From: Leptolyngbyaceae cyanobacterium
GTDB taxonomy: Bacteria; Cyanobacteriota; Cyanobacteriia; Phormidesmidales; Phormidesmidaceae
Assembly: GCA_965263355.1 (NCBI GenBank)
Contig: CBDHHL010000032.1
Location: 3,648,001 to 3,712,000, forward strand
Reading direction: 5' to 3'
Length of the DNA: 64,000 nt
The number at the start of each line of letters is the position of its first letter. Position 1 is the first letter of the stretch. Below are positions 53,375-63,316 of the stretch, one piece after another. A program made the translations under genes and the position numbers. The notes under the pieces were generated by a model. It saw only the letters and a program-made list of their open reading frames with translations, was not told the origin of the DNA and searched no databases.

Positions 53375-54811
53375 ATGCTTTCTAATTCAATGCGTAACGC
53401 ACTGTTGGCTGGTGCTCTGTTCACAGCAACCGCTGGTCAATCAATGGCGGCAGAAACTGTTGCTATCGATGGTTCATCTTTAGAAAATTCCACGATTCAG
53501 CTGGCTCAAGTAACTAGTGTGTCTGAGTTATCTGACGTACTCCCCTCTGACTGGGCTTACACTGCATTGCAGCGTCTGGTAGAAGAGTATGGTTGCCTTG
53601 AGGGCTACCCTGATCGCTCATACCGTGGTAATCGCGCGATGACTCGCTATGAGTTTGCTGCCGGTCTGAATGCTTGTTTGGATGTCATTGTGCAGCTGAT
53701 TGATGGTGGCGATGGCACTGAGCTTGAAACAGTTCGCCGCTTACAAGAAGAGTTTGCCGCTGAGTTGGCGACTATTCGTGGTCGTGTTGATACCCTCGAA
53801 GCTGATGTGGCTGAGCTAGAAGCTAACCAGTTTTCGACTACAACTAAGTTAAAAGGTCAATTAGATAGTCAACTCGTCATTCCATTTGACGCTCCTGACG
53901 ATGTTGATGAAGTCACGTTCGAATACCGGGCTCGCTTGAACTTCGATACTAGTTTTACTGGTGAAGATCGTCTGCGTCTACGTTTACAGGCGTCTGATGA
54001 TATGGATGCGCCTAATGATTATTTGCTTGATGGTCTTGCAGATTCCAGTGGCAGCGGTGGGGAAGACAATCTTATACTCGATGACGTTCTATATCAGTTC
54101 CCACTGGGCGATCGCATTGACGTAGAAATTGCTCTAAACAGCCGTTCTGCTGGTCAGCTAAACAGTAGCAATATAGTACCTTACGCTAGCAATGCTGTGG
54201 CTGAATTTGGTGAAGATGGTTTCTTTGAGTCCGCCTTTGACCAGGATGACAACTTTGCTATCGGTACTAACATTTCCTTGACCGATAACATCGTCCTGGA
54301 CCTTGCCTTCTCTGCTGATGATACTAATAACTCTGAAACTGATTTCTTCGATGAGTATGAGTACTTAGTTCAGCTCAACTATCTTAGCGATGGGCTGATT
54401 GATGCAGCTGTCGTATTTCAAGATGGTGAAGACCCCAACACGACTGTTGATTATGTCATTGGTGGTCTGCTGAATTTTGACTTTGGTGCCCTTGAGCTGG
54501 GTGGCTACTATGCCTTTATTGAAGGAGAAGGTGGCATCGGTGAGCAAGAAGAATGGCAGGTTGGTATTGCTGTGAATGACTTCTTAGCCCCTGGCAATCA
54601 ACTAGGCATCTATGGTGGCGACGCCTTTGATGAGGACAATGCTCCGTTTAACTTTGATAGTGACGCCGTCATTATTGAAGGATATTACGCGATGAAACTG
54701 AACAAGTATCTGACCATTACTCCTGCACTAATTTATGCTGACCCCGATGGTGTAGATGGCAATACTGAGGAAGGCTTTATTGGCGTTCTTCGGACTACCT
54801 TCAAGTTCTAG
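53375..54811 (+). CDS. SLH-domain outer-membrane porin (Som/OprB type)
   Basis: QVTSVSELSDV.PSDWAY, TRYEFAAGLNACL, NQFSTTTKL, terminal RTTFKF. Confidence 0.95.
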   Translation: MLSNSMRNALLAGALFTATAGQSMAAETVAIDGSSLENSTIQLAQVTSVSELSDVLPSDWAYTALQRLVEEYGCLEGYPDRSYRGNRAMTRYEFAAGLNACLDVIVQLIDGGDGTELETVRRLQEEFAAELATIRGRVDTLEADVAELEANQFSTTTKLKGQLDSQLVIPFDAPDDVDEVTFEYRARLNFDTSFTGEDRLRLRLQASDDMDAPNDYLLDGLADSSGSGGEDNLILDDVLYQFPLGDRIDVEIALNSRSAGQLNSSNIVPYASNAVAEFGEDGFFESAFDQDDNFAIGTNISLTDNIVLDLAFSADDTNNSETDFFDEYEYLVQLNYLSDGLIDAAVVFQDGEDPNTTVDYVIGGLLNFDFGALELGGYYAFIEGEGGIGEQEEWQVGIAVNDFLAPGNQLGIYGGDAFDEDNAPFNFDSDAVIIEGYYAMKLNKYLTITPALIYADPDGVDGNTEEGFIGVLRTTFKF

Positions 54812-58338: not shown

Positions 58339-58737
58339 TTAATCGTCCTTAGGAAACTTACATTTCACCTCGACCTCAAAGTTGCTCTCAGCTGAGCCGT
58401 TAACCAGCACCGGGACATTCGCACCACCGCTAAACTTGAGCCCAAACTTAAAATTCAGTTCTTCCACCTCTGCACCGCCCATATTTTTAAACGCATCAAT
58501 CACAAACCTGGCGTAGGTGCTAATGGTGCCATTGATTTCTCGCAGTTTGACCAACGTTTCTTTAGCAACGGTGGAGCGAGGTTGACTACCGTAAGATTCA
58601 TCGTCGTCCCAAAGGGTACCATCGCGTTTGGCATCTTTTTTAGGGGCACTGGGCACAACATCATCATCGGTTTGAATATAAACGGTATATTCGGCACCGG
58701 ACTCGTCTTGGACCACATAGGGTTGAATTTTGCTCAT
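58339..58737 (-). CDS. Trypco1 / CU044_2847-like protein
   Basis: C-terminal pattern EVEELNFKFGLKFSGGANVPVLVNGSAESNFEVEVK matches my recollection of the family; needs an HMM check. Confidence 0.75.
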   Translation of the reverse strand: MSKIQPYVVQDESGAEYTVYIQTDDDVVPSAPKKDAKRDGTLWDDDESYGSQPRSTVAKETLVKLREINGTISTYARFVIDAFKNMGGAEVEELNFKFGLKFSGGANVPVLVNGSAESNFEVEVKCKFPKDD

Positions 58738-58845
58738 GGGGGGAATTAGGAAATTGCTAGATAATCAGACCGGATCGGGAATGTTCGCTATGGTATTTGG
58801 AGAAATTGATAGATACGTTGAACCTTAAGCCTTTGTTTGTGTGGC

Positions 58846-61800
58846 ATGGCTAAATACGCCCTGGTAATCGGTCTAACTGACTATAGTAATGACTTTAACC
58901 CGCTCACCAGACCGGCAGCGGATGCTCAGGCCGTAGCCCAGATACTACAGACCAGCGGCTATCGCATTACGCCGATTTTAGCGGCGGCAAACTACGACGA
59001 TATTGTGGCCCAGCTAAAATCGTTTTTGCAGCAGACGGCCCATAAACATGAGGCGCTGATCTACATCACGGGCCATAGCTTTCTCGTGCAAGACGACTTG
59101 ACTGACGAGCAGGCTGGCTATATTGCTACCTCTGACTGTCGGGTGCGGTACGACGGCAACGACACCATTGTGGAACAGCGCGGTGGCATTCCGTTTGTGA
59201 ACTTTAACAAGCTGATTGCCAGGGCAGAGTTAAGTAATTTGGTGCTGCTGTTGGATACCTGCCATAGTGGTGGGCTGATTGAGCAGGGGCTGTTTCAGCA
59301 GAGCTTTAGCAGCTTTGGCCAAAAGACCGACTACTTTTTTATTACCGCTGCCCGCAGTTCAGAAGCGGCCTGGGCTAAGGCGGGGGCGGAGCACAGCGTA
59401 TTTACAACGGCATTGCTGAGTGGGTTGGCAGCAGAAAATGCGCCAGAGGGTGGAGCCATTACTGGGGATGATTTGTTTGCCCATATTGTTCGGCAGGTGA
59501 AGCATGAGCAGCAGGAACCCATGCGGCTGGGCCAGGGACGGTCGATTGAGATTGTGCGCCATGGCACAGCCAAACTGAATGCCCAAGTAAGTGAAAAGAA
59601 CCCCTATCAAGGTCTAAAGGCGTTTGACGAAGACTCTAAAGCGTTCTTTTTTGGGCGAGAAAGAGAGATTGAGCTGTTGCTGGCGAAACTGAGCCAGACA
59701 AACTTTGTGCCAGTGATTGGGGTGTCGGGCAGTGGCAAGTCGTCGGTGGTGCGGGCGGGGCTGATACCGGCACTGCGGCAGATGGGCAACTGGCGAATTT
59801 TAGCGCCGATCAAGCCGGGGATAGAGCCCATGGCGATGCTGAAAAATGCATTTTGTCAGCTAGTCAGCCACAGTCGCGATGTAAACCGCATGGCGGAGTG
59901 CATTGGTGAGAAGGATTTACTGGGGGCGGTGGCGCTGCTGCCGGACAGTCTGGACACCGAAAAACTATTGCTGGTGGTGGACCAGTTTGAAGAAGTGTTT
60001 GCCCTGGGCTCGCCAACATCAGAAAAGCAGCAGTTTATTGACTGTCTAACCAAGATTGCCAGGGTAAAAGACTCGCCACTGGCCATTGTCACCACCATGC
60101 GGGCGGACTTTTTGCCAGACTGGTTGAGCTATGGGGAACTGATCGAGTCGATTCAGCAAGATGCCGTATTTCTGGGGCGGTTGCAGGGGCAGGCGCTGCT
60201 AGATGCGGTGGAAAAACCGGCCCTGGTGCAGGGGCACAGCATTGAAAACGGTCTGCTGCAGCTAATTGCCGATGACATGAAAGCAGCCAGTAATGCCCTG
60301 CCGCTGTTGGAGTTTGCACTAGAAGCGCTGTGGGATCAGCGGGATACCCAGAACCACTGTTTGACGGTGGATGCTTACACGGGGATGGACCGGCTGAAGG
60401 GAACGTTGGATAGCCAGGCGACGAAGGTGTATGACCGGTTGGCGAAGACTGAACAGAGCTGGTGCCGTCGGGTGTGTTTAAGCCTGATTCGCATAGGTAA
60501 GGACGGAAAGGATACACGGCAGCGGCAGCCCCGAGAAAAGCTGCTGGCCATGGGGCAGACCGACAGTGAAAAAGAACTGATTGACTATGTGATCGATCGG
60601 CTGGTGGGGGCACGGCTGTTGGTGACCGGTGGGGATGGACAGCAGCGCTATGTGGATATTGCCCATGAAGCGCTGATGGATGGGTGGCAGCAGTTTGCCG
60701 ACTGGCGACAGGAAAATCGAGATTTACAACGGCTGGGGCAGCGGACACGGGATGCCTATGAGGAATGGGTGGGCCATGGTAAGCATCCGGACTATTTAAT
60801 CCCTAGCGGGTTATTAGCAGAACTACGAGAGCTGGCCGGTACGGTGCGAAACGATGTGCTATTGGCTACGGACCTGCGCACGTTTTTTACCCGCAGTGAC
60901 GAACAAGATCAGCAGCAACGGGCTGCTCTAGAGAAGGCTTTAGCCGATGCTCAAATCCAGGACCGCTCCCGTAAAATTCGTGACAAGCTAATCAATTTGC
61001 CTCAGTACACCGTCGAGGCCACCCTGGAAGCCATGGACACGGTCAACGATAGCCTGGTGGCGTTTAAAGGTGAGGTAAAACACTCGGCTCAATATGCCCT
61101 TAACCAAACCTGGCAGAAAATTCTTGAACGGCTAAAGCTGGAGGGCCATAGCGGCTCGGTTTTGGCCGTGGCCTTTAGCCCCGAGGGGGATCGGATTGTC
61201 TCCGGCAGCAAACCCTGCGCCTGTGGGATCGCGAGGGCAACCCCATCGGTGACCCCCTCCAGGGCCATAGCGACTCGGTTTGGGCCGTGGCCTTTAGCCC
61301 CGAGGGGGATCGGATTGTCTCCGGCAGCGATGATAAAACCCTGCGCCTGTGGGATCGCGAGGGCAACCCCATCGGTGACCCCCTCCAGGGCCATAGCGAC
61401 TCGGTTAGGGCCGTGGCCTTTAGCCCCGAGGGGGATCGGATTGTCTCCGGCAGCGGTGATAAAACCCTGCGCCTGTGGGATCGCGAGGGCAACCCCATCG
61501 GTGAGCCCCTCCAGGGCCATAGCGACTTTTGGCCGTGGCCTTTAGCCCCGAGGGGGATCGGATTGTCTCCGGCAGCGGTGATCAAACCCTGCGCCTGTGG
61601 GATCGCGAGGGCAACCCCATCGGTGACCCCCTCCAGGGCCATAGCGGCTCGGTTTAGGGCCGTGGCCTTTAGCCCCGAGGGGGATCGGATTGTCTCCGGC
61701 AGTAATGATAAAACCCTGCGCCTGTGGGATCGCGAGGGCAACCCCATCGGTGAGCCCCTCCAGGGCCATAGCGGCTCGGTTTTGGCCGTGGCCTTTAGCC

Positions 61801-62800
61801 CCGAGGGGGATCGGATTGTCTCCGGCAGCGATTGTCTGATCAAACCCTGCGCCTGTGGGATCGCGAGGGCAACCCCATCGGTGAGCCCCTCCAGGGCCAT
61901 AGCGACTCGGTTAGGGCCGTGGCCTTTAGCCCCGAGGGGGATCGGATTGTCTCCGGCAGCGATGATAAAACCCTGCGCCTGTGGGATCGCGAGGGCAACC
62001 CCATCGGTGAGCCCCTCCAGGGCCATAGCGAGGGCCGTGGCCTTTAGCCCCGAGGGGGATCGGATTGTCTCCGGCAGCGGTGATAAAACCCTGCGCCTGT
62101 GGGATCGCGAGGGCAACCCCATCGGTGAGCCCCTCCAGGGCCATAGCGGCTCGGTTAGGGCCGTGGCCTTTAGCCCCGAGGGGGATCGGATTGTCTCCGG
62201 CAGCGGTGATCAAACCCTGCGCCTGTGGGATCGCGAGGGCAACCCCATCGGTGAGCCCCTTAGCGACTCGGTTTGGGCCGTGGCCTTTAGCCCCGAGGGG
62301 GATCGGATTGTCTCCGGCAGCCCCGAGGGGGATCGGATTGTCTCCGGCATGATCAAACCCTGCGCCTGTGGGATCGCGAGGGCAACCCCATCGGTGAGCC
62401 CCTCCAGGGCCATAGCGGCTCGGTTTTGGCCGTGGCCTTTAGCCCCGAGGGGGATCGGATTGTCTCCGGCAGCGATGATCAAACCCTGCGCCTGTGGGAT
62501 CGCATCCGCTGGCAGGACTGGCTCCACGACTGCTGCACCAAGCTGTTGCACCACAGCGACCTGGTGCGACCCAAAACTGATGTGGCGAAGCAGGCCTGTC
62601 AAGTCTGCATGGACCATGGCTGGACTCCACAGGAGCGGGCAACGTTTTTGGTGGCCCAGGGTAAGTCGCTGGCCTATTACCAGCAAGATGTGGACGGGGC
62701 AGTGGCGAAGTTTGAGGCAGCGTTGGCGATTGACGAGGCGGCGTTAGATACCGAGCCGAGGGCGCTGGCGGAGAAAATAAAGGAGTGGGCCTCTCCCTAA
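58846..62800 (+). CDS. Caspase (C14)-nSTAND1 NTPase-WD40 repeat NLR-like protein, frameshifted within the repeats as assembled
   Basis: KYALVIG, YITGHS and LDTCHSG (His/Cys dyad); NPYQGLKAF, FFGRERE, GVSGSGKSS, VVDQFEEVF, LPLLEFAL, IAHEAL; WD40 units from 61141; TPR-like tail to TAA 62800. Confidence 0.9.
61141..62503 (+). repeat. 11 tandem ~126-bp WD40-coding repeats
   Basis: Unit starts at 61141, 61260, 61386, 61512, 61634, 61761, 61892, 62018, 62136, ~62261, 62405; consensus QGHS[DG]SV[RLW]AVAFSPEGDRIVSGS[DGN]D[KQ]TLRLWDREGNPIG[DE]PL. Confidence 0.97.
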
Positions 62801-62997: not shown

Positions 62998-63316
62998 GGA
63001 TTGACCACCTGGATCTTCCCCCCTCACGAAGAGCAGGGCTACTTCATTGTCTAGACAGAAAATCTGAGGGCATTGAAAGCTCATTTGAGGAAGACATGCT
63101 CTACCTAGAGCTGGGCCAAACAACAATGCGATAACCTGATTAATCGTCCCTGCCGTAACCCTTATTTATGCAATTAAGGACAACTCAGTAGGCCGGGTTC
63201 TAGGGCGGCCTCTGGCCCTAGCCATGGGGGTTTGGGGAACTCGGAGGGACCCCAAGCAACCGGTTTTGGTTCCCGCCGGTCGTATCTCCATGATATGTGC
63301 CCATGGTAGCTATTTT

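Follow-up and report, generated by a model that had tools for sequence, protein, structure and literature searches.

A pair of head-to-head genes, lying between positions 58339 and 62800 of a 64,000-nucleotide stretch of DNA from a Leptolyngbyaceae cyanobacterium (contig CBDHHL010000032.1; hereafter the window), probably works like the Pepco-protease pore systems. The small gene encodes a Trypco1 protein of the Pepco superfamily and the large gene a receptor composed of caspase, nSTAND1 and WD40 parts. By analogy with published relatives, in which activation of the protease is driven by a STAND module and the cleaved Pepco forms a pore, the receptor would oligomerise on binding a ligand, probably phage, and we predict that the activated caspase then cleaves Trypco1 within the linker ahead of its helix. 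As has been shown for EACC1, cleavage would strip off an N-terminal hairpin that acts as an inhibitor, leaving the helix and the C-terminal hairpin free to make, or to open, a lethal beta-barrel pore in the membrane. For this pair, the steps that we infer are the use of Trypco1 as substrate, the cut near its N-terminus, and the trigger by phage. Its features are as follows.

58339 to 58737, minus strand: Trypco1/CU044_2847 gene (Pepco superfamily) of 132 residues, above cut-off for PF19493 and NF041216; a predicted latent pore
58573 to 58629, minus strand: linker stretch, residues 37 to 55, with the candidate cleavage points; a site predicted from the G50 column and motif counts
58738 to 58845, no strand: head-to-head intergenic region of 108 bp, with the ATG of the large gene at 58846 on the plus strand
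58852 to 59517, plus strand: orthocaspase domain (Peptidase_C14), residues 3 to 224, 58.6 bits (cut-off 21.4)
59602 to 60789, plus strand: nSTAND1 NTPase (PF20703), residues 253 to 648, 353.8 bits, E 2.3e-105, with Walker A and B
61142 to 62503, plus strand: eleven near-identical 126-bp WD40 units (putative sensor propeller), frame broken in the assembly
62504 to 62800, plus strand: C-terminal helical tail of the large protein, sharing 53 of 68 residues (78%) with the tail, read in frame, of an intact relative at locus L001

The original prediction, made from the letters and their open reading frames (ORFs), had described a Trypco1/CU044_2847-like gene divergent from a caspase-STAND-WD40 gene, and profile searches bore out both assignments. 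The small gene matched Pfam Trypco1 (PF19493) with 58.1 bits (E 1.4e-15, cut-off 24.6) and NCBIfam CU044_2847 (NF041216) with 60.6 bits (cut-off 23), and gave no match to PF24393 at E 0.1 and none to EACC1 in the Pfam search. The catalytic residues of the caspase, His77 (59074-59076) and Cys139 (59260-59262), and the Walker motifs GVSGSGKSS (A, 59719-59745) and LVVDQFEE (B, 59971-59994) are present, as had been claimed. The acidic pocket residues, Asp26 and Asp137, align with the metacaspase ND and D-x-C positions; D137, H77 and C139 are invariant among 51 partner caspases, and D26 is nearly so. Judged by these residues and its domain order, the large gene encodes an orthocaspase, with a His-Cys dyad and acidic pocket residues, within an NLR-like STAND receptor of effector-STAND-repeat architecture with intact Walker motifs. 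Its caspase scored 78.4 bits against NF047832, the EACC1-system caspase, below the cut-off of 140. A TPR-like tail, also proposed earlier, was rejected as unproven, TPR_2 reaching E 0.065, below cut-off, which leaves a helical tail only.

The pairing of the two genes is conserved. A PF19493 search of 301 cyanobacterial genomes yielded 123 matches in 58 genomes, which were fetched with flanks of 1.5-2 kb; eight matches without an intact ORF were dropped, leaving 115 Trypco1 genes. A caspase adjoins 31 of these, a trypsin 51, both none, and neither 33. All 31 caspase partners are head-to-head with Trypco1 and 27 of them carry nSTAND1 (one of the 31 is the L001 locus), and all 51 trypsin partners lie in tandem, directly downstream of Trypco1. 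Class calls by local profile agreed with Pfam for all 12 short partners sent (six caspases, six trypsins), and the local profile found no trypsin-type ORF between positions 54001 and 64000 of the window, in keeping with the earlier suggestion that a caspase serves as the partner protease where no trypsin is nearby. The pair is retained in three of the four closest relatives, which represent two or more distinct gene neighbourhoods, and the fourth is cut off by a contig edge. Among 30 metagenome loci chosen by similarity, a caspase is present in 25 and divergent in 24 of these. The pair was also found intact on plasmids of cultured strains, Nostoc sp. C057 and Acaryochloris marina MBIC11017 among them: all five loci read, of seven records matched, have a divergent caspase-nSTAND1 partner, ending in pentapeptide repeats, WD40 or other C-termini, and the module adjoins recombinases and transposases. 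Sensor C-termini likewise vary across the loci as a whole (WD40, pentapeptide, iSTAND), and a genome may hold up to three divergent pairs. Eight pattern matches in viral contigs were not confirmed as relatives. These results demonstrate that the pair is a real, conserved module and that the pairing is not due to chance. On the Acaryochloris plasmid pMB04 (L197:5001-10348), two copies of the module lie within 5 kb, next to a tyrosine recombinase, and the second Trypco1 is cut short by an ISKra4 transposase.

The two partners have also diverged together. In an unrooted tree of the last 72 residues of Trypco1 (helix and hairpin, linker excluded), built from 64 rows of less than 80% identity with orphans excluded, the caspase-linked (22) and trypsin-linked (42) rows fall on the two sides of one branch with support of 99/96. 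A quick tree that included the orphans recovered a 72-row group with support of 91, made up of 54 caspase-linked rows, 18 orphans and no trypsin-linked row. Pepco and caspase distances are correlated (Spearman 0.67, reached in 0 of 999 permutations, near-copies kept in), and paralogous pairs of one genome are each nearer to a pair in another genome. A chance adjacency of two unrelated genes, in favour of which there is the existence of orphans on both sides and nothing more, is refuted by the uniform head-to-head arrangement of the 31 caspase-linked loci, their single branch, and their co-divergence, and is extremely improbable.

The linker of Trypco1 carries a motif that changes with the protease. 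[VI][SGA] was found in 37 of 39 trypsin-linked representatives (shuffle mean 20.6; 37 reached in 0 of 2000 shuffles), and 22 of 23 caspase-linked proteins have [RK][GD] or YG (shuffle mean 9.4; 22 reached in 0 of 2000), each motif being at background in the opposite class (9 of 23 and 6 of 39, respectively). The V/I of the trypsin-linked motif agrees with the Ile specificity of the serine protease of Evans et al. (bioRxiv 10.1101/2025.11.14.688446), for which a cut after Ile was reported, and the Arg/Lys of the caspase-linked motif agrees with orthocaspase specificity, which is for a basic P1 residue in the available part of PMC8283722, and with the conserved Asp26 and Asp137. The candidate cut points in the window protein are R38-D39, Y49-G50 and R54-S55, of which Y49-G50 is in register with a near-invariant Gly, position G50 being conserved to at least 90% across 83 rows. 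The protease-matched motif proved to lie in the acidic linker, which the original prediction had singled out for its ESYG stretch. Those caspase columns that vary along with the YG motif do so in line with kinship and are given no weight here.

Monomer models of the small protein, which are poor (predicted local distance difference test values of 53 and 49), suggest an N-terminal hairpin (residues 3-23), an acidic linker (24-58), and an amphipathic helix (59-84), followed in the C-terminal half by a long alternating strand pair (89-102 and 116-128) and a tail of four residues. As patterns read from the sequence, residues 66-83 of the helix are amphipathic (moment 0.56), and the hydrophobic/charged alternation of both strands is kept across 54 caspase-linked rows. 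The tail beyond the last strand has a median length of 6 residues in the caspase-linked class (maximum 15) and holds Ile in 3 of 54 rows; the window protein ends in xKCxFP, as against LxW on the trypsin-linked side. Because the tail is so short, release of a 2-kDa tail of the kind reported for SsPepco, a trypsin-linked Pepco, is unlikely here, and C-terminal cleavage was rejected. The near-absent tail, the kept barrel strand pattern, and the linker motif that switches with the protease lead us to predict activation from the N-terminus. Trypco1 had been proposed earlier to be either a substrate or an adaptor of the caspase; by analogy with Evans et al. and from the conserved strand alternation the protein is more likely a death effector, forming a pore, than an adaptor.

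Several observations weigh against a protease-gated pore. In the literature, no experimental work came to light on a Pepco of Trypco1 type or on one linked to a caspase. A Foldseek search of the small-protein models against the PDB gave no match at E 0.001, and a profile search of PDB sequences with the Trypco1 family found none. The linker patterns were picked after inspection of the alignments; moreover, in the subgroup to which the window belongs, the conserved Gly follows a Tyr instead of Arg/Lys (YG in 16 of 54), and some YG linkers hold no basic residue, so that the P1 residue could be either basic or Tyr. His77 of the window caspase is followed by Ser rather than the usual Gly, which qualifies the intact dyad; HS occurs in 7 of 61 caspase rows from the loci (HG 51, HA 2, gap 1) and, since those seven are the window and its close relatives, is a subgroup trait. 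No known defence gene is present in the examined flanks of the window pair, which encode an inositol monophosphatase, an acyltransferase and Uma2. Orphans are common, as the 33 Trypco1 genes with neither protease attest. Of 120 genomes from the L001 family, 96 carry a caspase-branch Trypco1, and among the best 30 of about 166 matches in that family, 11 have a divergent caspase (three of them repeating L001-L003), 2 stand at a contig edge, and 17 have none. Fifteen of these 17 form one subgroup, in housekeeping surroundings and with the K-G linker motif kept. Near-universal in the L001 family, the caspase-branch Trypco1 is thus unlike a patchy defence gene. Proteins of the protease-less subgroup (L248, L249, L252, L254, L256-L265, L267), whose linker motif is T-R-T-[AS]-K-G, are perhaps cut in trans or serve another role. 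In the window's own YG subgroup, a caspase is present at 8 of the 10 loci with enough flank. On the trypsin side, the orphans at L091, L100, L107, L119, L120, L126, L129 and L136 each follow a conserved gene whose product, checked at L100, weakly matches the SWIM zinc finger.

The wide distribution of the branch in the L001 family and the many orphans with a K-G motif amid housekeeping genes would suit a system with the same cleavage and pore and a trigger other than phage, namely a switch by which filamentous cyanobacteria undergo cell death under stress or in development, and in which orphan Trypco1 proteins are cut in trans. The housekeeping flanks of the window pair and the failure to find a relative in viral contigs point the same way. 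We consider such a switch quite unlikely, given the varied sensors, the plasmid locations beside recombinases and transposases, the up to three pairs per genome, and the presence of any Trypco1 in only 58 of the 301 cyanobacterial genomes, which is the pattern of a conflict system.

A different role for the small protein is suggested by a reverse survey, which also counts against a strict two-gene system: of 70 caspases similar to the partners (only nine candidates being scored per genome), 31 have Trypco1 and 39 lack it, two of these at contig edges. Trypco1 could be a non-lytic adaptor or a bait-type inhibitor whose linker docks on the caspase and tunes the threshold of that protease, with a different protein as the lethal substrate. 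A bait would fit the protease-matched motif equally well, and the available part of a study of diversity-generating retroelement loci (10.1101/2023.09.22.558884), in which Trypco1 occurs near caspase-like genes, calls it an adapter domain. Such a role is decidedly unlikely, as the conserved alternating hairpin and the amphipathic helix match the tested pore, and beside 8 of the 39 caspases without Trypco1 the head-to-head place is taken by a different small divergent gene, as would be expected of exchangeable effectors. This alternative small helical family (L159:1564-2025, L166:1248-1727, L176, L179, L182, L189, L191, L193) has no name in Pfam, NCBIfam or Atlas, and may resemble CATASP.

As assembled, the large gene is not one open frame: six of the ten unit-to-unit intervals of the WD40 array are not divisible by three (119, 122, 127, 131, 118 and 152 bp), and a 117-bp interval is an in-frame loss. 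Every indel sits at one of two places where the units vary among themselves, and the caspase and nSTAND1 parts contain no frame breaks. Read-derived contigs of three runs (X1, X2 and X3) hold seven extra bases at 61208-61209, the first break, and among the contig pieces listed, beside which there are 114 further pieces, none bridges the deleted form. In run X3, a contig of depth 307.7 closes a clean 126-base cycle. The bin 62300-62333, which holds the 30-base duplication, has a depth of 0-4 against more than 100 elsewhere in the repeat, a low cover not counted as proof. Repeat contigs are roughly 10-13 times as deep as unique ones in X1 and about 8 times in X3, ratios that do not give copy numbers and carry no weight here. 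In the large genes of relatives the frame stays open over 1436, 1258 and 1058 residues until the contigs end. The three runs belong to one study, which may include the source sample, and their contigs merge all repeat copies and lose rare variants; they therefore support an assembly error without proving it, and cannot prove each WD40 copy whole. We conclude that the frameshifts are very probably assembly errors and that the large gene would be whole in the organism.

If the frameshifts were instead real, through decay or repeat slippage, the window copy would be dead or switched off, a sensor-less caspase-nSTAND1, a conclusion that concerns this copy and not the family. The number of frame-breaking intervals, the occurrence of split forms elsewhere (plasmid locus L201), and the merging of repeat copies in the contigs leave room for this. 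It is unlikely in view of the confinement of the indels to two variable places, the extra bases in all three runs, the clean cycle in X3, the unbroken caspase and nSTAND1 parts, and the long open frames of relatives. Window position 59127 reads T, as does run X1, and the unique contigs of X2 and X3 read C. Three full-length WD40 units differ at D/N/G, D/E and D/G positions and at the residue preceding AVAFS, and the window units resemble the near-identical, hypervariable WD40 sensors of fungal NLRs.

The two genes may be under shared control from the 108-bp intergenic region, in which a sigma-70-like promoter scan gave 0 sites (shuffle mean 1.4). PADLOC reported a generic caspase model only at the locus. 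The host is near Leptolyngbya cf. ectocarpi LEGE 11479 (89% identity). Just 3' of the large gene, window positions 63030-63290 hold a multi-copy element, marked in the three runs by a several-fold rise in contig depth and many loose ends, that looks like a short dispersed repeat or a miniature inverted-repeat transposable element (MITE).

STAND- and WD40-fused orthocaspases are abundant in cyanobacteria (WD40 in 83 of 473 orthocaspases in the available part of PMC8283722) and have long been suspected in programmed cell death; the pair offers them a candidate substrate and a narrow candidate site. A broader proposal, possible and put forward tentatively, is that Trypco1 proteins make up a second class of Pepco pore, locked at the N-terminus, and that the cleavage motif in their linker was rewritten in one cyanobacterial branch as trypsin gave way to an orthocaspase. 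An Apaf-1-like caspase-STAND-WD40 receptor that senses through hypervariable repeats would then open a pore directly, making the pair a bacterial circuit of two genes from inflammasome to pore. On this view, Trypco1 would be the first natural substrate to be named for a large set of orthocaspases in cyanobacteria, some of which may form a Tyr-specific subgroup.

Several of these elements are already in print. Evans et al. (bioRxiv 10.1101/2025.11.14.688446) described Pepco with cysteine proteases as well, and bacterial Apaf-1-like STAND receptors with an N-terminal caspase, including caspase-STAND-WD40 proteins in cyanobacteria, appear in the available part of bioRxiv 10.64898/2026.01.04.697583, as does nSTAND1 with caspases in that of PMC8195603. 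Since Pepco-cysteine protease systems and caspase-STAND-WD40 sensors have thus been reported, the pair is less new than first thought: the concept of a protease-gated Pepco pore is known, and the module extends that logic rather than founding a new one. The main text of the receptor paper, as far as available, names no substrate or partner and contains neither "Pepco" nor "nSTAND1". No description was found in the literature of a head-to-head Trypco1-caspase-nSTAND1 branch, of its near-tailless proteins with a kept barrel pattern and a linker motif that changes with the protease, or of N-terminal activation; earlier coverage of the pairing is possible.

By its profile matches and its place in the tree, the window gene is a member of the Trypco1 family that falls outside three known or related arrangements. 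The Trypco1-trypsin pairs of Kaur et al. 2020 (PMC7159879), in the available part of which Trypco is paired only with trypsin and caspases are found with alpha/beta-hydrolases instead, belong to the same family, PF19493, but the window gene falls across the branch from them and differs in linker motif and C-terminus. Small Pepco-type genes of PF24393 are likewise found with a caspase in cyanobacteria, at 22 of 25 loci, and 23 of 25 have a basic motif in the linker ([GDN]-x-[RK]-[GSA]); unlike the window gene, they stand in tandem, ahead of a different type of caspase that shares about 23-27% identity with that of the window. The PF24393 loci, L213-L237, form a second, independent Pepco-caspase lineage, separate from the window-type loci. 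In the EACC1-caspase system (Kaur et al. 2020; KrEACC1-KrAvs12 in Evans 2025), a caspase-STAND sensor also cuts a small neighbour, and the pore is set free by the loss of a beta fragment at the N-terminus, as is predicted here; the system differs in family, in its transmembrane helix, and in its tandem layout.

The closest functional model is SsPepco-SsAvs4 of Streptomyces subrutilus (Evans et al.), in which the gene of a trypsin-like Avs4 stands in tandem with that of the Pepco. The helix comes first in SsPepco, which by eye resembles Trypco2 (Table S1 compared with loci L202-L206) and reportedly forms a 9-10-mer barrel whose toxicity depends on cleavage after Ile97, in a C-terminal tail of about 2 kDa that is removed. 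Common to the two modules is a Pepco/Trypco gene adjoining a sensor-fused protease, and the window protein appears to share the amphipathic helix and the hairpin with charged and hydrophobic faces of the Pepco barrel. In contrast to SsPepco, the window Trypco1 has an N-terminal hairpin and linker, almost no tail, and a head-to-head caspase-nSTAND1-WD40 partner, so that its predicted activation geometry is opposite to that of the only Pepco tested.

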